Below, piece after piece: positions 1,468-63,205 of a stretch of DNA of 64,000 bases (position 1 is the first letter of the stretch; each line of letters starts with the position of its first letter). The position numbers and the translations under genes were made by a program. The stretch comes from Candidatus Micrarchaeota archaeon (GTDB lineage Archaea; Micrarchaeota; Micrarchaeia; Anstonellales; Anstonellaceae), in NCBI GenBank assembly GCA_964392435.1, contig CAYMOY010000001.1:7484-71483 (forward strand). The letters run 5' to 3'. The notes beneath the pieces were generated by a model. That model was not told the origin of the DNA. It did no database searches and saw only the letters and a program-made list of their open reading frames with translations.

Positions 1468-1612
1468 GGGCCCGTAGTCGAACAACCCTTTTGCTCGCTC
1501 CAGATGGGGACGCTCGCAAAAGCGTTGACGGAAAATTGCAAAGGGGTTCGACAATGGTTAAGACGTCGCTCTTACACAGCGAAGATTCGGAGTTCGATTC
1601 TCCGCGGGCCCA
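1468..1612 (+). tRNA. tRNA-Val (anticodon TAC) with ~72-nt non-canonical intron in the D-loop
   Basis: Acceptor GGGCCCG/CGGGCCC, D-stem GTCG/AGAC, anticodon stem TCGCT/AGCGA with loop CTTACAC, T-arm CGGAG-TTCGATT-CTCCG, discriminator A; 5' exon 1468-1482 separated from rest (1555-1612) by intron. Confidence 0.6.
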
Positions 1613-1648
1613 CTGATATTCGGAGTTCGACCGCAAACTGCGCGGCAG

Positions 1649-3406
1649 CTAGCACACCTGGCTGGCTGGAGGGCAAACCGGATTCTGCCCAGGGCAATCG
1701 GTGCATGGGTGCTCCGTCTTCCAGGTGCTTATGGGCCCAAGGCAGCAGCAGCCGTAGGAAAAGGAATTGAACGAAAGCGAAAGGTAGGTGCTGTTCGTGC
1801 TTGAATACCTGCAGGTGGTGAAACACTGTCTGGCTTGAATTGCGGCAAGCGCAGCATTGACATCTGCAGCTATTTTCTGTTCGCACGCGGCGCGCGCGTT
1901 TTCTCCCTGCGCATAGGCGGTCAGCCCTATTCCCTGGCATTCGATTGCGCAGTTCACCGGGACAGGGTCGCAAACATCTCCAATCCCATCCCCGTCATGG
2001 TCGGACTGGCTTGGGTTGTAGCTGCTCGGGCAATTATCTGCAAAGTCGCATTTCCCGTCGGCATCAGTATCCTGGCAGGCGCATAGGCATGACTGGGAGC
2101 AGGAATAGTTTTGCGGGCAGGAGCCAGCATTCCCGTCGCACTCCTCGCCGCCTTCCTTCACTCCGTTTCCGCAGGCTGCGGGCGCTACTGTGTTCTGGCA
2201 GGAACACTGCTGGTTGCAAGTCTGGCTGCCCGAACAAGCGTTTCTATCAGCACCGTCGCACTGCTCGCTTCCCTCGCGGACATTGTTGCCGCACACTGCT
2301 TGCGCGGCTGTTGCCCAGCAGTAGCAGTTGGAGCAGGTCTGTGTCGCATTGCAGTAGCCCCGGTCCGCCCCGTCGCACTGCTCGCTTCCTTCGCGAACAT
2401 TGTTGCCGCACGTGGCGGTGGTGACAGAATCGATTATCAGCACCAGCCCCTTGGTGCTCTGGTTCACAGGGCATCTGCAGTTTGGCTGGCACACTGCGCC
2501 GCCGCAAAGCTCGGCTGATGCCCCGTCGCACTGCTCGGTTATTTCCCTTATCCCGTTGCCGCACACCCCCTTCGTGCCCACCACGCATTCGCACTCTGAT
2601 GAGCATACCTCGTTTGAATCGCAGTACCAGTCCTGATTGCCGTCGCACTCCTCCATCGCCTCCTTGAAATTGTTGCCGCAGGTGTGCGAGGTCACATCCT
2701 TTGGTATGCACGTGCAGGTCCTCAGGTCGCACTTGTAGTCCATGCCGAACAGGTCCGAGCAGTCGTCGCCGCAAGAGGGCAGGGTGGTCCAGATGAAATT
2801 GTTGAGCCCTGTGGATGAGGCGTACTGGTGGTTCGCCTTGCAGCTTATGGGCATTGCCGCGGTGTAGCATTTGCAGCCGCTGCAGTATTCCCCACCGCGG
2901 CATCCGTTGGCTGATGGCTTGTCCTTGCTGCCGACATCGCAAACCTCCCCAGAATCAAGGGTGCCGTCCCCGCAATAAGGCTGGGCGGCCTTGGGCGCAG
3001 GCGGAGCCGTGGTGTTGTTCTGCATCCCTTGCCCTGCGGCATCGGCAGGCTTTGCCTTGCACAGGCAACTGGAAATATTGCATTGCCGATTGGCATCCTG
3101 GCATGCGATGCCCCCCTCGCACTGCTCGCCCCCCTCCAGCTTGCCATTGCCGCAAGATGGAGCTGGCGGTTGCTCTGTTTTGTTTTCTGCGGATGGCGCG
3201 GCAGCCGGGGCAGGTGGCTGGGCATCCTTCTTCACGCACTTGCAAGACCTGCATATTTCATCGATGCCAGCGCAGCCAGCGTCGCTTTCGCACACTTCGC
3301 TCGCATCCAGCCTGCCATCGCCGCAAACAGGGGCAGGCTGCGTGCATCCGAAATACAACAAGGCTGATGATAGCAGAACAAGCAGCAACAAACGGGAAAA
3401 CTCCAC
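1649..3406 (-). CDS. Secreted cysteine-rich repeat protein (Myxococcus-type Cys-rich repeats CGNGxxExxEQCDG plus thrombospondin type-3-like DxDxDGxxDxxDNCP repeat)
   Basis: ORF 1649..3493; probable GTG start at 3406 gives a signal peptide (M)EFSRLLLLVLLSSALLYFGC. Repeated VCGNGIREITEQCDG / TCGNNVREGSEQCDGADR units; DTDADGKCDFADNCPSSYNPSQSDHDGDGIGDVCD. Confidence 0.7.
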   Translation of the reverse strand: MEFSRLLLLVLLSSALLYFGCTQPAPVCGDGRLDASEVCESDAGCAGIDEICRSCKCVKKDAQPPAPAAAPSAENKTEQPPAPSCGNGKLEGGEQCEGGIACQDANRQCNISSCLCKAKPADAAGQGMQNNTTAPPAPKAAQPYCGDGTLDSGEVCDVGSKDKPSANGCRGGEYCSGCKCYTAAMPISCKANHQYASSTGLNNFIWTTLPSCGDDCSDLFGMDYKCDLRTCTCIPKDVTSHTCGNNFKEAMEECDGNQDWYCDSNEVCSSECECVVGTKGVCGNGIREITEQCDGASAELCGGAVCQPNCRCPVNQSTKGLVLIIDSVTTATCGNNVREGSEQCDGADRGYCNATQTCSNCYCWATAAQAVCGNNVREGSEQCDGADRNACSGSQTCNQQCSCQNTVAPAACGNGVKEGGEECDGNAGSCPQNYSCSQSCLCACQDTDADGKCDFADNCPSSYNPSQSDHDGDGIGDVCDPVPVNCAIECQGIGLTAYAQGENARAACEQKIAADVNAALAAIQARQCFTTCRYSSTNSTYLSLSFNSFSYGCCCLGPISTWKTEHPCTDCPGQNPVCPPASQVC

Positions 3407-10214: not shown

Positions 10215-10805
10215 ATGGACAATGCATTCGGCAGAAAATACAAGCGGGTGCTGGAGATACTCCCAGATGTTGCGGAGTGCGCAGGGGAAAAACTGATCCT
10301 GGTGGGCGGGACCGCCCTTGCCCTCTTCCATTTGAAACATCGCGTCAGCGTAGATTTGGATTTCGTGCCTGCCGGCGGCAACGACATCAGGCTAAAGGAA
10401 GAGCTCAAAGGCTGTATGTCAAAGAGAGGCTACCGGACCTCTCCTGGGCGCTTCAAAAACCAGTTCGTGGTGCAGTTTGAGGACACCAGCATAAAAGTGG
10501 AGATTTTCATCCCAGACAGGAAAATCAAGCGCGTCGAAGAGCACGAATTTTGCGCCAGAAAGATACGGGTGGCTTCCTGCGAGGACATTTTTCAGATGAA
10601 AATTGCCGCCTATAAGGACAGGAGAGAGGCGCGCGACCTGTTTGACATATTCTGCATACTTCAGGCCCGCGGGCGGGATTTTGGCATGGTGAAGAAACTA
10701 TTATCCGGCGGCATGCCGAAAAATATCGGCGACCTGGAGATTATGGCGCTTAACCGGTCTGATGCGACTGGATTGCGGAAGGTGATTCTTGATGCTTCTT
10801 CCTAA
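10215..10805 (+). CDS. Nucleotidyltransferase-fold protein (AbiEii/DUF1814- or MNT-like toxin/antitoxin-type NTase)
   Basis: Pol-beta NTase motif LILVGGTALALFHLKHRVSVDLDF (hG[GS]...DxD). Confidence 0.55.
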   Translation: MDNAFGRKYKRVLEILPDVAECAGEKLILVGGTALALFHLKHRVSVDLDFVPAGGNDIRLKEELKGCMSKRGYRTSPGRFKNQFVVQFEDTSIKVEIFIPDRKIKRVEEHEFCARKIRVASCEDIFQMKIAAYKDRREARDLFDIFCILQARGRDFGMVKKLLSGGMPKNIGDLEIMALNRSDATGLRKVILDASS

Positions 10806-11346
10806 GCAGGCAATCAGTTTCCGGTCTCTTTTCGCCCAGGGCTTTGCCAAAACAGAAATCTCATCAATGTCCGCTTCTCTCAAGCTGTTTCCCTCCCCTT
10901 TCAAGGGGATTTATTATGTGCCTTTGGAGGAGGAAAGGAAAGGCGGGTTCATCGAAAAGCCGCTTGCGGCGCTATCCCAGGCAATTCGCATTTTCCTGGG
11001 AAATAGCAATTTTTATTTCAGCTGCCAGACCGCTGAGGAGGCGCTCGGATTTGACTGGCAGCCCTCGGGCAGCGTGCATGTGGTCAATGAGAGGCTTTCC
11101 AGGCGGATAAACCTGAACCGAAGGATTGAGGCAAACCGTGCAAAAGGCAGCTGGCGCTCAAGGAAAATTGCGAAGCTGCTTTCATTTTACGGGACCGAGA
11201 TAGTGTTCCATCGCGGCAGCATTGAACGCGCCAGGACAAAACAGATGCCTTACGGGCAATTCGCGCGCCTGTCGCAAATAAAAAAAGACAGGAAAAGGTT
11301 CAGGGAAATCAAGGGAAACAGCGGCGGCATGGGCGGGGACTACTAA
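10789..11346 (+). CDS. Hypothetical partner protein of the NTase; C-terminal residues NSGGMGGDY are encoded by the duplicated thermosome tail
   Basis: Overlaps upstream gene by 17 nt; ORF terminates with the same stop codon context as ths. Confidence 0.4.
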   Translation: MMLLPKQAISFRSLFAQGFAKTEISSMSASLKLFPSPFKGIYYVPLEEERKGGFIEKPLAALSQAIRIFLGNSNFYFSCQTAEEALGFDWQPSGSVHVVNERLSRRINLNRRIEANRAKGSWRSRKIAKLLSFYGTEIVFHRGSIERARTKQMPYGQFARLSQIKKDRKRFREIKGNSGGMGGDY

Positions 11347-11362
11347 GGCTTTTTTCTTTTTT
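11321..11362 (+). repeat. Direct repeat copy 2 (duplicate of thermosome 3' end), right boundary of inserted cassette
   Basis: Identical to 9920-9961. Confidence 0.8.
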
Positions 11363-11420
11363 ACTTTTTTTGTTTCTTCCTTTTCTTTCTATAGTGCTTG
11401 TCATGCGCTTTTCCATGCAC

Positions 11421-12449
11421 TCACTTCTCATCCGGCGCACACAGCCTTTCCGATATTTTCTTTCCTGAAGGAAGGTATTTTGAGAGGCTATGCGGCAGCT
11501 GCGCGGTCATCCTATAAGTGGAAACACCGATTGGTTTTTTTACCTCTTTCAGCGCATACTCCACAATCGTCCTGTCCTTGCTCTTGCAGATGATTATTCC
11601 AATCGAAGGCTTTTCGCCCCCCATTCTCACCTTGTCATCAAGCACCGAGAGATAGAATTGCATCTTTCCCGCGTACTCAGGCATGAACTCCCCGACTTTT
11701 AACTCTATTGCCACGAGGCATTTCAACTTCCTGTGGTAAAGCAGCAGGTCAACAAAAAACTCGCTGCCGCCGACTTCAAGCCGGAACTGGTTCCCAATAT
11801 AGCAGAAACTGCCGCCCATTTCCACAAGAAAGCTTCTCACCCGTTTCATGAGCGCGCCTTTCAGTTCTTTTTCAGAATGCTCCCCTCCCAGCTCAAGAAA
11901 ATCAAACGTGTACTCATCTTTGACTGCCAGCTTTGCCTGCCCTTTGTACCTGGCTGGCAAGGCTTTATCGAAATTAGTCTGGTTTGTGAGATATTTCTCA
12001 TACGACCTATTCTCAATCTGGTGGATAAGCACGCTTTTCGTCCAGCCAAACTTCCGGATCATTTTGATATAGAACTCCCTTTCAAGGTCGTTTTTGCACT
12101 TCTCCATGACAACTAGGTTCTTAGCCCAGCTGATTTCTCGCACCAATGGTGCGAGTTTTGCATTTTTGCAGTAGCTTTGGTAGAAATTCCGCATTCTCCA
12201 AAGACTGGCGGGGGAAAAGCCATGCACACCGGGATACTCCTTCTGCAGATCAAACGCAAGCCTTTCTACAATCGCCTTGCCCCAGCTGAACTTTTCCTGC
12301 TTCTCGGCTATTTCCCTGCCGATGTCCCAGTAAAGATTAACGAGCTCCTTATTGACTGCCTTCAGCGCGGAATACTGCGCCTCCCGTATCCTGTTCTTAA
12401 TCTCAATTACAAAATCCCTGTAGCCAGATTCCTTTACGAGCGCACTCAT
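11421..12449 (-). CDS. PDDEXK-nuclease family protein (DUF1016/YhcG-like)
   Basis: N-terminal ...AVNKELVNLYWDIGREI... and C-terminal LVAIELKVGEFMPEYAGKMQFYLSVLD match DUF1016; start at internal Met (12449) of ORF 11421..12500. Confidence 0.6.
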   Translation of the reverse strand: MSALVKESGYRDFVIEIKNRIREAQYSALKAVNKELVNLYWDIGREIAEKQEKFSWGKAIVERLAFDLQKEYPGVHGFSPASLWRMRNFYQSYCKNAKLAPLVREISWAKNLVVMEKCKNDLEREFYIKMIRKFGWTKSVLIHQIENRSYEKYLTNQTNFDKALPARYKGQAKLAVKDEYTFDFLELGGEHSEKELKGALMKRVRSFLVEMGGSFCYIGNQFRLEVGGSEFFVDLLLYHRKLKCLVAIELKVGEFMPEYAGKMQFYLSVLDDKVRMGGEKPSIGIIICKSKDRTIVEYALKEVKKPIGVSTYRMTAQLPHSLSKYLPSGKKISERLCAPDEK

Positions 12450-12524
12450 TTCAACCACATCGCGCAAATGTGGGCAGTTCCACGCATTAAAAACATTCAC
12501 AGGGTAGCATGCCAGTAGTTTTTC

Positions 12525-13409
12525 TCACTTCCTTTCCCATCCCCTTGCCATCTCCTTTTCCAGGAATCTCACCAGGGGCGCCACCCCGCGATTGGTCTCG
12601 TAAGCGTGAAGCGCAGAATAGTAGGCGTGCCTTTTCCGGTAAAAGATGACCACGGGCGGCAGGCCGTTTTTCAGCAGTATGTTGTTCATCAGCAGCCTTC
12701 CCACCCTGCTCGTGCCTTCACGGAAAGGGCGGATGTTCTCGAACTGGCAATGCACCAGTGCGGCAAGCACCAGCGGATGGCGCCTTTCCCTGTTGTTATT
12801 ATACCATTCCGCCAGCCCAAAAAGCAAGCCCTTCACCTGGCTCCAGGGGGCGCCCCTGTGCACAATCTCGCCCTGCCGGTTCCTTACCACCAAGTCGACG
12901 CGCCTCAGTTTCCCTGCAAACGGCTCGGAATTCCTGAAAGCCGCCTTGTGCAGCTCCAGCATCAAAGGAACGGACAGGTGCGTTTTTGTCTCAGCCAGCA
13001 TCCTTGTTGCTCTTGCAACCCCGTAGGTTTCGGCAATGTCCTCCTTTGGCTTGTCGGGCCAGAGGTTGTTCTTCAATATCTCGCCTGCCTCCCTCCGGGT
13101 AATGCTTGAGCCTTCGATGGCATTGCTGTTGTAGGTGAAATCCACCACAAATTCCTCCCACTTCTTTTTTCCCACCCTTGCCCTCATTGCCCTTGCCTCC
13201 ACGCTGCCAAATGCGATTTCCCACTGCCCCATCAGCTTTTCCCTGCCCTCAAGCTGCTTTCTGGCAGCCTCGTGTTTGAGCACCAGCTCCTCCCTTCCCA
13301 AATTGGTGCCCAGGTAAACCCTGTCTTTCCTCACCTTCTGCCCCTGCCGGTACGAGCGGGTCAGGTAGAATTTCCTCATTTTCCTTTTTCCCCTTGCCTC
13401 AATGTACAT
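12525..13409 (-). CDS. Fic/DOC family protein with degenerate active-site motif (RPFREGTSRVGR instead of HPFx[DE]GNGRxxR)
   Basis: FTYNSNAIEGSSIT N-terminal Fic motif; core motif has His->Arg and GNG->GTS; TATA-like TTAATAAAT ~25 bp upstream of ATG 13409. Confidence 0.65.
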   Translation of the reverse strand: MYIEARGKRKMRKFYLTRSYRQGQKVRKDRVYLGTNLGREELVLKHEAARKQLEGREKLMGQWEIAFGSVEARAMRARVGKKKWEEFVVDFTYNSNAIEGSSITRREAGEILKNNLWPDKPKEDIAETYGVARATRMLAETKTHLSVPLMLELHKAAFRNSEPFAGKLRRVDLVVRNRQGEIVHRGAPWSQVKGLLFGLAEWYNNNRERRHPLVLAALVHCQFENIRPFREGTSRVGRLLMNNILLKNGLPPVVIFYRKRHAYYSALHAYETNRGVAPLVRFLEKEMARGWERK

Positions 13410-13735
13410 GCACCATCTTGGGTGCCTACAATTTATTAATGCTTTCCAAAAGGTGACCACAAAACAGGCAAATCTTCCTCTGCTCCCCCCTTTTTTCCCA
13501 TCTGCCCCCGCCGCAAGAAAGCGCATCCGGCCCTTCCAAAAGCTGAACCGGCGCATCCTTGGCTCTTTGCGCGCGCAAGGGGGGCGAAGAAATGCTTAAA
13601 AACATTACTTTCGAAGCGTCTGAACGTGGAAGGCAGAATACAGGGCAGTTCAGACTTTTCCAGATGCGAGCACGAGCCCAGCCCCCACAAGGCAATAATT
13701 TTCAGCCAGCGTCAGTACTAATCGAGGTGAGCCAT

Positions 13736-25117: not shown

Positions 25118-25200
25118 CGGTTTTTATTCGGCGCACCGAATAAAAATCTGATGCATTTTCGTTGCAACGAAAATGGCACATCGGTTTTTATTCGGCGCAC
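25118..25200 (+). promoter_or_regulatory. Palindrome cluster: IR TTTTTATTCGG-N4-CCGAATAAAAA (25121-25146), perfect 18-bp palindrome TTTTCGTTGCAACGAAAA (25156-25173), second copy of CGGTTTTTATTCGGCGCAC (25182-25200)
   Basis: Located between histone 3' end and the start of the membrane-anchored regulator gene. Confidence 0.45.
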
Positions 25201-30719: not shown

Positions 30720-30771
30720 TTTGCCCCGGGGGCGTATCCATTTCCCTCGCCTAGCCTGCGGGTCAGCTTCT

Positions 30772-30897
30772 GGAAAAAGCTCACGCTTTTTCCATCTTAT
30801 CTGAGCCTGTCGGCTCAGATTCAGGAAAAATCTATCAAGATTTTTCCATCCGATTGGAATTGAGATTCCAAGTCTGGAAAAAGCTCACGCTTTTTCC
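30772..30897. repeat. Array of five hairpins in convergent intergenic region: GGAAAAAGCTCACGCTTTTTCC (30772-30793 and identical 30876-30897), variant GGAAAAATCTATCAAGATTTTTCC (30824-30847), interleaved with palindromes CTGAGCCTGTCGGCTCAG (30801-30818) and TTGGAATTGAGATTCCAA (30854-30871)
   Basis: 52-bp periodicity of the GGAAAAA/TTTTTCC units; T5/A5 runs on both strands suggest bidirectional terminators. Confidence 0.6.
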
Positions 30898-31391
30898 ATC
30901 CTATCCAAAAAGCCCTGCGCCTTTTTCCGTATGCCCTGGCTGCCCAGAGGCACCACCACCGCGCCGGCATCGGGCTGCCCGTAAACAAGGGTGCCCCCCT
31001 TTGCGCGTGCCATAACAAGAAGGGAAGTCAAATCGTCCTCGCCAACCACAAATATCGCGCCGCTGCCTGCCGCAAGCACGCTGTCCACGGCTGATGAAAG
31101 CTCGTCGGTTATAACTCCGGGCGGGGAGAGGACCACAAAAGCGCTTGCAGCATGCAAAGCAAAGGTTTTTTTCATATCCAAAGGTATTTCCGCCCGCTTT
31201 ATCTTGAAATCAAATGCCAGTATGTCAGGCGCATTGCCAAGCCGTATCATGTCAAATGCGCATTGGTCCCCAACCGATATGAGCGGCCTTTTCGCCGCGG
31301 CAAGGGCAGCTTCCAGTTTTTCCTTTCCCAAAACAGTGCCAAAGGGCTTGCGCACCTCGTCTCTTAGGTGTTCTGGCAATCTCAGCATCAA
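30885..31391 (-). CDS. DUF359-family protein (possible GTP-dependent dephospho-CoA kinase)
   Basis: 168 aa; weak recollection-based family assignment (ISVGDQCAFDMIRLGNAPDILAFDFKIKR). Confidence 0.4.
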   Translation of the reverse strand: MMLRLPEHLRDEVRKPFGTVLGKEKLEAALAAAKRPLISVGDQCAFDMIRLGNAPDILAFDFKIKRAEIPLDMKKTFALHAASAFVVLSPPGVITDELSSAVDSVLAAGSGAIFVVGEDDLTSLLVMARAKGGTLVYGQPDAGAVVVPLGSQGIRKKAQGFLDRMEKA

Positions 31392-33412: not shown

Positions 33413-33722
33413 TGCGGAGCGGCGGGAGGACGGCTCACCGCGCCCTGCTTTGCGGGGCGGGGAGGAAGTTCTGCCCACCGGAAAGAGTCCAAATCGCTTA
33501 AGGCGATATCGGGAACAGAAACGATTAACCGCCCCCTCCGATGAGAATGACGAAAGGAGAGGGGGGGAGCGGGTTGAAACGGCCCGTGCTTGGAAACAAG
33601 ATGCACGGTGCAAGGCCTTGTGCCGCTTGTCCATCCGCGAGGATGGATAGCTGGGGGGCAAAAGCCCTCCGGATAGTCCAATGCCGTCTGAAACAGAAGG
33701 CAGACTACTACCTGCCGCTCCT
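33413..33722 (+). ncRNA. rnpB: RNase P RNA (archaeal type A)
   Basis: GGGGAGGAAGTTCTGCCCACC (cf. GGAGGAAAGUCCGGGCUCC, P4 5' strand), GAAACAGAAGGCAGACTA (ACAGAAnCCGGCUUA, P4 3' strand), GGTGCAAGGCC (conserved GCAAGGCC), GNRA loops, P1 pairing GGAGCGGC/GCCGCTCC; TATA-like CATTAAAAG ~25 bp upstream; overlapping ORFs are low-complexity. Confidence 0.65.
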
Positions 33723-35311: not shown

Positions 35312-35416
35312 GGGCTTGTGGCGCAACGGTAGCGCGCCTGCATGGCATGGCCATTTCGCAGCGGCGGAATGGGCACATAGTGCAGGAGGCTGGGGGTTCG
35401 AATCCCCCCGAGTCCA
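35312..35416 (+). tRNA. tRNA-Ala (anticodon GGC) with 33-nt canonical intron (after position 37)
   Basis: G3:U70 identity pair, A73, D-arm GCGC/GCGC, anticodon stem CCTGC/GCAGG, loop ATGGCA|intron|T, T-arm GGGGG-TTCGAAT-CCCCC. Confidence 0.75.
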
Positions 35417-41775: not shown

Positions 41776-41880
41776 GGGCCCATAGTCGAATGGCCGCCTG
41801 TCCTTGGGGCTGCGGCTCGACAATGGTAAGACGTCTGCTTGACGTGCAGAAGACTCGGGGTTCGATTCCTCGTGGGCCCA
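41776..41880 (+). tRNA. tRNA-Val (anticodon GAC) with 33-nt non-canonical intron in the D-loop
   Basis: Acceptor GGGCCCA/TGGGCCC, D-stem GTCG/AGAC, anticodon stem TCTGC/GCAGA loop TTGACGT, T-arm CGGGG-TTCGATT-CCTCG, A73; intron 41794-41826 (CCGCC...AATGG). Confidence 0.6.
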
Positions 41881-41947: not shown

Positions 41948-42030
41948 GAAGACTCGGGGTTCGACCGCCAACTGCGAAGCAGTTGGGGGGACAGGAGAGC
42001 CGCAGCTCTCCTGGATTCCTCGTGGGCCCA
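41948..42030 (+). repeat. Partial duplicate of tRNA-Val(GAC) positions 42-73 with a 50-nt insertion in the T-loop
   Basis: GAAGACTCGGGGTTCGA + CCGCCAACTGCGAAGCAGTTGGGGGGACAGGAGAGCCGCAGCTCTCCTGG + ATTCCTCGTGGGCCCA; insertion contains GAGCCGCAG complementary to CTGCGGCTC in the tRNA's own D-loop intron. Confidence 0.6.
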
Positions 42031-42129
42031 CTCCCATAGGGGGCAGATGCAAACAGTCTGTCCCCCTAAGGGTTTCACCCCCTCTGGATTCCTTAGGTGC
42101 CCACGTTTTTCACTGCTTCGCAGAGGCTC

Positions 42130-50186: not shown

Positions 50187-50260
50187 GGCCACGGTGGTGT
50201 AGCCTGGTAGCACGGGAGACTGTGGATCTCTTAGCCCGAGTTCAAATCTCGGCTGTGGCC
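50187..50260 (+). tRNA. tRNA-His (anticodon GTG)
   Basis: G-1 opposite C73, acceptor GCCACGG/CTGTGGC, anticodon stem GGAGA/TCTCT with loop CTGTGGA, T-arm CCGAG-TTCAAAT-CTCGG. Confidence 0.75.
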
Positions 50261-50296
50261 TCACTTCGTTCAGCCACAGTCTCGCCGCCTTTCGGC

Positions 50297-50380
50297 GTCG
50301 ATCGGCTGTGGCCCTCGCAATGCGTTGCTCGTGCCACATCTGTCGCAAACCTAAGGGTTTGCTCCATCGGCTGTGGCCCT
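50297..50380 (+). repeat. Two partial copies of tRNA-His 3' end (TCGGCTGTGGCC) downstream of the gene, first preceded by CCGCC-type insert, second by hairpin GCAAACC-TAA-GGGTTTGC
   Basis: cggctgtggcc at 50301-50311 and 50368-50378 vs tRNA 3' end 50250-50260. Confidence 0.55.
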
Positions 50381-62948: not shown

Positions 62949-63017
62949 GATGATTACCTCTTTTGCGCGCCAGCGCAAAACTGCACGGATGGCGAAGCGC
63001 CTCGGGCAGGATGGAGC

Positions 63018-63076
63018 AAACCGAAGGTTTGCGACAGCTTTGGAGCTTCAGCTCCAAACTGCACTGATGGCGAAGC
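63018..63076 (-). repeat. Partial duplicate of tRNA-Asn 3' end plus 20-nt trailer (TCCTGCCCGAGGCGCTTCGCCATCxGTGCAGTTT), separated from the gene copy by hairpins GGAGCTGAAGCTCC and GCAAACCTTCGGTTTGC
   Basis: Plus-strand ctgcacggatggcgaagcgcctcgggcagga (63022-63052) vs ctgcactgatggcgaagcgcctcgggcagga (63060-63090). Confidence 0.6.
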
Positions 63077-63205
63077 GCCTCGGGCAGGACTTGAACCTGC
63101 GACCTATGGATTGCTGCCGTTGCATTCGCAACAGTTAACAGTCCATCGCTCTACCGTTCAGTCTCAAGAGGGCGCACCCTCAAGAAAAGACTGAGCTACC
63201 GAGGC
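63077..63205 (-). tRNA. tRNA-Asn (anticodon GTT) with two introns: 33-nt D-loop intron and 24-nt canonical 37/38 intron
   Basis: Acceptor GCCTCGG/CCGAGGC, D-stem GCTC/GAGC, anticodon stem ATGGA/TCCAT, loop CTGTTA|intron|A, T-arm GCAGG-TTCAAGT-CCTGC, G73. Confidence 0.65.

Follow-up and report, generated by a model that had tools for sequence, protein, structure and literature searches.

Arrays of hairpin modules and duplicated tRNA 3' ends behind tRNA genes in a Micrarchaeia lineage

The stretch analysed here, 64 kb of contig CAYMOY010000001.1 from a Candidatus Micrarchaeota archaeon and hereafter called the window, holds six tRNA genes, a total which was completed by reading the sequence around the calls of the prediction tools. 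Four of the six, tRNA-Val(TAC), tRNA-Val(GAC), tRNA-His and tRNA-Asn, are followed 5-150 nt downstream by exact copies, 12-17 nt long, of their own 3' ends, and the partial 3'-end copies that an earlier sequence-only reading of the window had proposed at these genes were thus located as exact matches at each of them. The copies at His and Asn are just 12-13 nt long and stand right behind the same 24 bases, CTGTCGCAAACC-loop-GGTTTGCTCCAT, which we call module X and which on the antisense strand reads 5'-ATGGAGCAAACC-GAA-GGTTTGCGACAG. A hairpin common to these two loci had been seen before; the identity in fact extends over the 24 bases CTGTCGCAAACC..GGTTTGCTCCAT. Together with the hairpins that separate them the copies form arrays, which look like a previously undescribed family of small insertions targeting tRNA genes without damage. 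The tRNA genes and the features behind them are as follows.

1468-1612, plus strand: tRNA-Val(TAC), with a D-loop intron at ~1483-1543; the Rfam tRNA match covers 1544-1612, ARAGORN misses the gene, and it was read by eye.
1618-1695, plus strand: relic 3' half of tRNA-Val(TAC), made of an exact 13-nt copy of nt ~46-58 (1618-1630), an insert and a degenerate 3' exon.
35312-35416: tRNA-Ala(GGC), no array.
41776-41880, plus strand: tRNA-Val(GAC), with a D-loop intron at 41791-41823 and the 3' exon CCTCGTGGGCCCA at 41868-41880; the ARAGORN and Rfam calls are truncated.
41948-42030, plus strand: partial copy of tRNA-Val(GAC), with nt 44-58 exact (41948-41964), a 49-nt insert, and T-loop end plus 3' exon exact (42014-42030).
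42084-42104, plus strand: third, degenerate copy of the Val(GAC) 3' end, CTGGATTCCTTAGGTGCCCAC, 81% identity.
50187-50260, plus strand: tRNA-His(GTG), called by ARAGORN and Rfam, final 12 nt TCGGCTGTGGCC at 50249-50260.
50261-50313, plus strand: His unit 1, a short loop, a complement of the acceptor 3' strand (GCCACAG, 50273-50279), a hairpin CGCCG..CGGCG, and the copy TCGGCTGTGGCC at 50302-50313.
50314-50378, plus strand: His unit 2, a loop ctcgc..gctcgt, the complement GCCACA at 50333-50338, the X module CTGTCGCAAACCtaagGGTTTGCTCCAT at 50340-50367, and the copy TCGGCTGTGGCC at 50367-50378.
63205-63076, minus strand: tRNA-Asn(GTT), with two introns, one in the D-loop (63188-63161) and one canonical; 3' exon CCTGCCCGAGGCG at 63088-63076.
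62960-63075, minus strand: Asn array, consisting of trailer, a terminator-like hairpin TTTGGAGC..GCTCCAAA at 63058-63039, the X module at 63037-63011 and the copy CCTGCCCGAGGCG at 63010-62998; in its distal part the trailer is repeated and a second hairpin, TTTTGCGC..GCGCAAAA, follows at 62980-62961.
63368-63239, minus strand: tRNA-Phe(GAA), no array.

Of the window tRNA genes ARAGORN found only two, and Rfam at gathering score five, some of them called too short, because several carry D-loop, multiple or other non-canonical introns. Micrarchaeia, and ARMAN-2 among them, are known for many such introns and for an epsilon-2 splicing endonuclease of broad specificity (PMC3239211). The Rfam match of tRNA-Asn(GTT) is weak, and this gene was read by eye and aligned with its orthologue in a related contig (L055), where the D-loop intron is missing and the canonical one is kept. 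Because of the arrays and introns together, most tRNAs of these genomes are overlooked or wrongly called by standard tRNA finders.

For each gene, the final 30 nt of the tRNA were matched against the 250 nt that follow it, and the length of the longest exact match was compared with that in 2000 dinucleotide shuffles of this flank. Matches of 12 nt (Val-TAC), 17 nt (Val-GAC), 12 nt (His) and 16 nt (Asn) were equalled in 0, 0, 5 and 0 of the 2000 shuffles, respectively, and the longest flank matches of tRNA-Ala and tRNA-Phe, 6 and 7 nt, were at chance level. This test and the recurrence of the copies in relatives (see below) rule out a chance origin, as the sequence-only reading had maintained for a recurring architecture of tRNA 3'-end copies.

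That reading had merged two kinds of locus into one architecture. At His and Asn short copies stand behind the conserved hairpin; the Val loci differ in that they hold longer relic 3' halves with an insert in the T-loop. The Val-TAC copy begins with ATTCGGAGTTCGA, present at 1585-1597 and again at 1618-1630; a 52-nt hairpin insert of a type called Z below (1631-1682), starting CCGCAAACTGCG, follows, and then the 3' exon TTCTGCCCAGGGC at 1683-1695, which is degenerate, with ~8/13 positions identical to the tRNA. The degenerate 3' part lies partly beyond the extent first given for this copy, 1618-1690. At Val-GAC, GAAGACTCGGGGTTCGA occurs at 41849-41865 and 41948-41964 and GATTCCTCGTGGGCCCA at 41864-41880 and 42014-42030, and the copy is perfect apart from its insert (41965-42013), which consists of two hairpins, CCGCCAACTGC-gaa-GCAGTTGGGGG and CAGGAGAGC-cgca-GCTCTCCTG. 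Both Val copies start in the variable loop or T-stem and are split after TTCGA by inserts of ~49-52 nt sharing their first ~20 nt (CCGC(A/C)AACTGCG..GCAG, as had been described) and a terminal GGA. Behind tRNA-His the 3' end TCGGCTGTGGCC is present three times, from 50249, 50302 and 50367; the CCGCC-initiated insert reported for this locus is a hairpin other than the Val inserts. The Asn locus contains a 52-nt repeat (62960-63011 against 63038-63089, 87% identity) which includes CCTGCCCGAGGCG, and the two versions of its terminator-like hairpin differ by compensatory changes. Positions 63022-63052, where an Asn copy had been placed, hold hairpins, and the real copy lies at 62998-63010. About 30 nt before tRNA-Val(TAC), at 1425-1437, a 12/13 near-copy of its anticodon-stem region (1561-1573), AGCCGTCGCTCTT, was also seen; by a rough estimate ~0.05 such matches are expected per 400-nt region, and it may be a relic fragment or chance.

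The X core was scanned in 185,579 species genomes, where it lies in six loci of Candidatus Micrarchaeota/Micrarchaeia metagenome-assembled genomes (MAGs), and a metagenome scan added ~19 related contigs, giving ~25 X loci in all from Micrarchaeia genomes and metagenomes (cited by their L numbers). In four of the six MAG loci TCCAT is followed by a 3'-exon copy, in L032 it is followed by the 5' end of the adjoining tRNA, and L050 has no tRNA. Three stretches of the window are syntenic with contigs bearing arrays at the same tRNAs, protein identities to the window being 46-79% for L047 (a MAG labelled Candidatus Micrarchaeia), 41-88% for L061 and mostly 42-77% for L058, L063, L074 and L066; the sequence-only reading had asked whether relatives lack the copies, and these relatives have them. 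On these grounds the window is taken to come from a member of the Micrarchaeia (DPANN). The family extends to about ten tRNA species, as judged from anticodon loops read by eye: Val-GAC, Val-TAC, His, Asn, Arg-CCG, Arg-TCT, Arg-TCG, Gln, Glu, Pro and one long-arm tRNA. Up to five tandem copies were found (L063), and X has the orientation of the tRNA in 21/21 tRNA-adjacent X units.

For a 19-base pattern ~13 chance matches are expected in 596 Gb by our own estimate, and the other exact X-core matches, in dispersed hairpin repeats of Methanocorpusculum, tandem repeats of Clostridiales MAGs, Actinobacteria and scattered bacteria, came without TCCAT plus tRNA copy and were set aside. The Methanocorpusculum loci (L005-L051) hold many dispersed clusters of TCGCAAnnn-loop-nnnTTGCTCC followed by GCTGAGG or GCTAAGG and a second hairpin; these form a palindromic repeat family of their own, numerous and sharing the stem base of X. 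In Nonomuraea (L004, L013, L025, L041) and Frankia/Pseudofrankia (L035, L039) the core TCGCAAACC-loop-GGTTTGCTCC stands ~20-25 nt after a tRNA gene, with no tRNA-end copy behind the hairpin and no integrase nearby or downstream; this could be a coincidence of terminators or something shared.

The units of the arrays are mosaic blocks which follow one order. Each begins with a copy of nt ~60/62-73 of the local tRNA ending exactly at the discriminator, followed by a short T/C-rich loop from one of few families (ctcgc..gctcgt, tYtcgcttcgctcaa, tcacttcgttc or tttctgcggaaatgt). After the loop comes either a 6-11-nt Watson-Crick complement of nt ~64-73 of the local tRNA or an independent TTTTGnnn..nnnCAAAA hairpin, then at least one hairpin module, which may be X, Z (CCGCCA-stem-loop-stem-TGACGG), Y (a double hairpin) or others, and finally T and the next copy. 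Blocks are ~45-105 nt long, the inter-copy segments (41-137 nt) are non-coding, and the final copy is followed by the native T-rich trailer and no complement. The same grammar is seen at a tRNA 5' end in L032, where a 13-nt copy of leader plus nt 1-11, its 10/11 complement and X precede the real tRNA.

A complement of the tRNA was found at p<0.01 in 6 and at p<0.05 in 9 of the 39 inter-copy segments tested (~25 of them true units), its fixed offset being left out of the test. It is Watson-Crick to the 3' strand where the 5' strand of the tRNA has G.U, and it runs into a complement of the T-stem, which discounts a copy of the tRNA 5' acceptor strand; a complement is present in the 5'-end case L032 too. 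A retroviral-type primer-binding site was likewise rejected, there being no TGG complementary to the CCA end, and so was snap-back self-priming of a 3'-exon fragment, as the complement stops short of the fragment's 5' end. This tRNA-specific element may be guide-like or attC-R''-like, a product of template switching, or a later adaptation. The succession copy-complement-copy (direct-inverted-direct) is what two template switches would produce, and it speaks for a purely local origin of the arrays, by slippage or template switching among hairpins beside highly transcribed tRNAs, with the palindromes homogenised by gene conversion. The varying duplicated lengths and L060, with two identical tandem units, fit such an origin as well. 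Against it, many tRNAs and genomes agree in precise junctions at nt 60-62 and 73/74, identical modules stand at unrelated loci and in distant genomes, and the orientation is fixed; we hold local rearrangement to be highly improbable.

Comparison of orthologous loci, whose flanking proteins are 41-88% identical, revealed arrays at the same tRNAs composed of different units. Between L063 and its near-identical counterparts L058 and L074 the difference is exactly one 61-nt unit, which L063 has in addition and which stands immediately behind the tRNA; in this unit the X stem is GCGC/GCGC and the flanks CTGTC and TCCAT are retained. Blocks are gained or lost as whole units, at the tRNA-proximal end in the one case observed. 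The distal-most Val-GAC unit is common to L053 and L058/L063/L074 and the proximal units differ, which suggests that units are added at the tRNA-proximal end. Two unit types at His stand in one order in the window and in the opposite one in L073/L047, and module Y follows X in L053, L064, L066 and L068 but lies within the loop of a Z hairpin in L058. The copies keep pace with their tRNA: a G:C to A:T change in the Asn T-stem of L055, compensatory with respect to the window, is mirrored in its copy, and a change in the His acceptor (CTGTGGC against CCTTGGC in L047) is mirrored in all copies. Mismatches are frequent in last or distal copies (L006, L016, L059, L066 and 42084-42104 of the window); in L058 the mismatch is in an internal copy and the last copy is exact.

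These observations led us to favour an origin by serial insertion, in which small hairpin modules enter strand-specifically at the tRNA 3' end and each insertion duplicates the 3' exon; we judge this account to stand at an even balance between right and wrong. Blocks from a limited set of modules would have been added one after another behind tRNA genes in a Micrarchaeia lineage, each closing with a fresh copy of the host 3' exon, nt ~60/62-73, which comprises the T-stem 3' strand, the acceptor 3' strand and the discriminator. As every block would bring its fresh 3' exon, the tRNA would stay intact, and older copies would be pushed downstream and decay. The inserting enzyme would be strand-specific and would act on folded single-stranded or hairpin DNA; it could be a REP/RAYT-like (repetitive extragenic palindrome and its associated tyrosine transposase) or IS200/IS605-like HUH enzyme, an integron-like tyrosine recombinase, or a ruler-type integrase with the T-loop as landmark. 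The duplication of nt ~61-73 would be a by-product of insertion, either att-like (attachment site) or target-site-like. A tRNA-targeting mobile element resembling a miniature inverted-repeat transposable element, one of the candidates of the sequence-only reading, fits best with the presence/absence polymorphism of units, the mosaic modules and the fixed orientation.

Several points weigh against serial insertion. The related loci were gathered by exact X match, which biases both the conservation and the composition of the family, and the polarity of addition is read from one species group only. The duplicated length is usually 11-14 nt, starting right after the T-loop, but it is 24 nt in L020, 52 nt at Asn and 30 nt plus insert at Val-GAC, and the 6-11-nt complement at a fixed offset in many units is not produced by a simple target-duplication or att model. 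No transposase or integrase was found beside the arrays among the ~30 open reading frames (ORFs) of the window that were scanned and the loci inspected, and the inserts lack terminal inverted repeats, their left ends being CTCGC.., TTTCG.. or TCAC.. and their right ends ..CTCCAT or ..GACGGT. Finally, X is 100% identical between the window and L055/L061 at Asn, amid an adjoining trailer and hairpin that have diverged, which could reflect function rather than recent spread.

A rival reading takes the arrays for scars left by integrative elements (viruses or plasmids that bring a tyrosine integrase), whose att core, nt ~61-73, was duplicated at each integration and which were later deleted down to their att-proximal arms. 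The intron-bearing Val relic halves would then be displaced original 3' parts. Integrative scars are plausible for the two Val relics, L068 and L064. The 3' parts of tRNAs are standard archaeal att sites and direct repeats flank the elements (PMC3293823, PMC9897764), the Val-GAC locus is as predicted, with an intact gene and then a displaced 3' part with T-loop insert, and the native T-rich trailer behind the last copy is as expected for attR. L068 offers the mirror case of the window Val-GAC locus: at ~2060-2215 in reverse-complement coordinates, nt 1 to ~44 of tRNA-Arg(CCG), interrupted by two introns, form a partial 5' copy 36 nt before a complete intronless gene for the same tRNA. A foreign AT-rich block, at least 1.3 kb long, stops in L064 exactly at the first 3'-exon copy, where the near-identical L068 has its tRNA (Arg); this shows that the array boundary is also a breakpoint for larger DNA, and it counts for serial insertion as well. 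The block (L064 1-1360), which encodes three paralogous zinc-ribbon membrane proteins, has perfect direct repeats of 24 nt (ACTCCTAACAGAGGTGTGGGCTAA) on its two sides and no integrase in its visible 1.3 kb; either an integrated element or an assembly that was joined at the copy boundary may explain it. On the other hand, random deletion would not repeat a grammar of 45-105-nt blocks, nor a 24-nt motif identical across lineages; the same modules stand beside about ten different tRNAs, where an attP matches one tRNA; no integrase fragments were seen in the scanned ORFs; and the L063 polymorphism is one clean 61-nt unit. X is also unmatched in the viral contigs of IMG/VR, where six matches to the Y-module string proved to be unrelated coding sequence, and a viral origin was rejected. 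We regard integrative scars as unlikely; relics of iterative att-site use, as the sequence-only reading had put it, nevertheless stay a live rival and overlap with the mobile-element reading.

We also weighed a functional 3'-trailer or antisense structure in RNA or DNA, such as a terminator or processing signal, a decoy or mimic of the acceptor/T-arm, or a protein-binding site, and here the fold of the arrays bears on the matter. On either strand the predicted fold of the arrays is much stronger than that of shuffles (z -4 to -6). In 18 arrays G.U accounts for ~5% of the predicted pairs of each strand, and in 17 of them stability is slightly higher for the antisense strand. Among 50 distinct perfect hairpins triloops of the type TNC on the sense strand, that is GNA on the antisense strand, prevail by 15 against 1, and the commonest tip is GC-TTC-GC, the complement of which, d(GCGAAGC), is a classic and very stable DNA mini-hairpin. 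The modules end in CCAT or ACAT, which on the antisense strand read ATGG or ATGT. With no strand bias of G.U, selection at the RNA level was rejected, and the hairpins resemble DNA palindromes. An Rfam 15 search (gathering, and E<=1) gave no relevant family; besides tRNAs and RNase P RNA there was just a weak YrlA-like match over tRNA-Asn plus X, at 26.7 bits against a cut-off of 69 bits. A C/D-box guide RNA was dismissed, since by eye no consistent C or D boxes lie beside the complementary segments. Combined together, these features point to strand-specific hairpin elements at the DNA level, of the REP/BIME (bacterial interspersed mosaic element), IS200/IS605 or attC kind, and an RNA of the sense strand would fit less well.

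The main support for a functional structure is the X identity mentioned above; moreover, the hairpin adjoining X keeps its fold via compensatory changes, the copy co-varies with the tRNA, and the complement could pair with either neighbouring copy, forming an acceptor-like stem that closes the X hairpin. It is opposed by the lack of G.U asymmetry, the slightly better antisense fold and the antisense GNA loops, by the lack of an Rfam family, and by the lack of a bulge-helix-bulge (BHB) between successive copies and of C/D boxes (by eye). The mismatches in last or distal copies (L006, L016, L059) would disrupt their pairing with the tRNA, near-identical strains differ in which units they have and relatives in the order of units, two of the six window tRNAs have no array, and the T-runs starting many hairpins would probably end archaeal transcription before the distal units. 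We therefore consider a functional structure distinctly unlikely. The trailer-processing RNA structure offered by the sequence-only reading is disfavoured in particular, since both strands have near-pure Watson-Crick stems, the fold is slightly better in antisense and the distal copies decay.

The modules of the arrays also meet with the introns of these tRNAs. L067 carries a genuine T-loop insert at 59/60, which folds with the T-stem into a symmetric 7x7 internal loop and a 4-5-bp inner helix, a relaxed BHB (h2 GUCC/GGGC, central helix UCA/UGA); it is the one genuine 59/60 T-loop BHB intron among the inspected loci, and ARMAN-2 has documented introns of this kind (PMC3239211). The Z modules of trailers share the design of the L067 insert, CCGCC..hairpin..TGAC-NN|T, and its start resembles the inserts of both window Val relics. 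Similarly, a double TTTTTGC..GCAAAAA module is found in the D-loop introns of L058 and L006 and in the trailer of L059. Since both the Z design and this module are shared by introns and trailers, a single pool of modules would, judging from the sequences, fill both. X, Y and the other modules were rejected as T-loop BHB introns, since the 4-bp central helix cannot form and GCTC before the X 3' end is unable to pair with TTCR, and besides the L067 intron only Z-type modules fit; splicing between successive copies was rejected too, as it requires a self-complementary 4-mer which by eye is lacking in most of these tRNAs.

In terms of serial insertion, the same pool would supply the unusual T-loop and D-loop introns: a module landing with a duplicated exon would require no splicing, and one landing without it would have to be removed as a BHB intron. 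The arrays thereby bear on where the many oddly placed tRNA introns of Micrarchaeia come from. The same hairpin modules are seen in two states, harmless behind an intact tRNA with a duplicated exon or inside tRNAs as introns; taken with the unit differences between near-identical strains, these states offer a testable path by which introns could be gained and tRNA gene fragments arise. A compact target (T-loop plus 3' exon) and the 24-nt conserved hairpin could be used to find the responsible enzyme.

Away from the tRNA genes, an intergenic cluster at 30771-30898 of the window holds four perfect hairpins, TGGAAAAAGCtcacGCTTTTTCCA (twice), ATCTGAGCCtgtcGGCTCAGAT and GGAAAAATCTatcaAGATTTTTCC, three of which end in CCAT like X. 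One of them resembles the first module of the L060 tRNA array, and the whole has the look of a BIME-type mosaic distant from any tRNA. At 25121-25175 there is a second pair of hairpins. The window further contains an archaeal RNase P RNA (33418-33719, by Rfam search) and housekeeping genes of archaeal type, namely thermosome, ABCE1, a Pelota-like protein, Hjc and DnaG. An LSM-domain (Sm-like) protein gene (34818 onward) stops 15 nt before the array-free tRNA-Ala(GGC), and genes of defence or toxin type are grouped at 10215-13556 (an AbiEii nucleotidyltransferase toxin, a YhcG/DUF1016 PDDEXK nuclease and a Fic/DOC protein).

When set beside known systems the arrays could not be filed under any precedent, as each fails at least one defining feature tested. 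Models and catalogues of tRNA rearrangement are available for comparison, among them a model of tRNA fragment scattering and intron gain (Sugahara et al. 2012; PMC3293823) and a catalogue of tRNA gene fragments (PMC9897764). Archaeal att duplications of the SSV1 and pNOB8 type share with the arrays a direct repeat of the terminal tRNA part beside an intact gene; their relic halves can carry an intron, and repeated use of a site gives several copies. Their repeats, however, are ~40-50 bp long, lie 2-120 kb apart and include an integrase gene, whereas the arrays have 11-14-nt repeats at 45-105-nt spacing, no coding sequence and no integrase domain in the scanned flanking ORFs. Moreover, att elements are specific to one tRNA, and X, Y, Z and the loop modules occur behind about ten.

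Casposons, which use an integrase of the Cas1 family (PMC5137440), take the T-psi-C region as upstream landmark and duplicate an adjacent ~15-bp segment, to be set beside array copies that are mostly 11-14 nt long and start right after the T-loop, with duplications of 24, 30 and 52 nt besides; insertions beside tRNA in tandem arrays separated by the duplicated segment are both predicted and observed, and the L063 polymorphism and the shared distal unit fit their polarity. The array inserts differ in being 45-105 nt long and of fixed orientation without terminal inverted repeats, their duplication lies wholly within the tRNA (nt 61-73) and that of A. boonei overlaps only the last 5 bp of the tRNA, and they recur as shared modules, unlike the captured sequences of casposons and CRISPR. 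No Cas1 or PolB gene was seen among the scanned ORFs of the window. That the arrays were made by a ruler-type integrase, Cas1/casposase-like or other, with the universally conserved T-loop as leader and the following ~13 nt, the 3' exon, as a repeat that is duplicated when cassettes are added beside the tRNA, seems to us improbable. If true, it would give a natural leader-repeat-insert array anchored to tRNA genes, such as has been postulated to stand between casposon integration and CRISPR arrays, and an enzyme that is Cas1-like or uses guides would bear on the origin of repeat-insert arrays such as CRISPR. In a variant of this idea the tRNA-specific complement of the cassettes may be a DNA guide which programs insertion behind the chosen tRNA.

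REP/BIME sequences with their RAYT and the palindrome-associated elements derived from IS200/IS605 are short extragenic palindromes in mosaic clusters, strand-specific and without terminal inverted repeats. The arrays agree with them in having palindromes with a conserved foot tetranucleotide (here CCAT or ACAT), mosaic extragenic clusters and no terminal inverted repeats. They differ from REP elements and PATEs (palindrome-associated transposable elements), which have neither a 13-nt tRNA duplication nor a target-specific 6-11-nt complement. The IS200/IS605 type is expected to insert 3' of a 4-5-nt target with no target duplication, in contrast to the array units; module Y alone behaves in an IS200/IS605-like manner, following CAT or CTT. 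No RAYT or TnpA was found linked to the arrays in the scanned ORFs of the window and the inspected loci. Of the Micrarchaeota genomes, >65% are reported to carry IS200/IS605 elements (PMC13343696).

Integron cassette arrays, with attI and cassettes ending in a folded attC (PMC3458562), resemble the present ones in a fixed site followed by units in which an inverted pair closes a hairpin-rich centre, in polar addition and fixed orientation, and in single-stranded hairpin substrates. The core of the arrays is, in contrast, tRNA-specific and not GTTRRRY; their cassettes are non-coding and very small, and the scanned ORFs showed no IntI. Lastly, BHB introns have two 3-nt bulges around a 4-bp helix at the exon-intron boundaries and an excision that restores the tRNA, which holds for the L067 insert and not for the trailer units; upstream of an array the tRNA is already complete and there is nothing to splice. 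Transposition of introns is described for Thermoproteales (Fujishima 2010, as cited in PMC3239211). With the 59/60 BHB introns of ARMAN-2/Micrarchaeum (PMC3239211) the arrays nevertheless have in common that their copies start at the 3' splice junction of such an intron, that their Z modules share the L067 design, and that their hairpin modules are also found inside D-loop and other introns.

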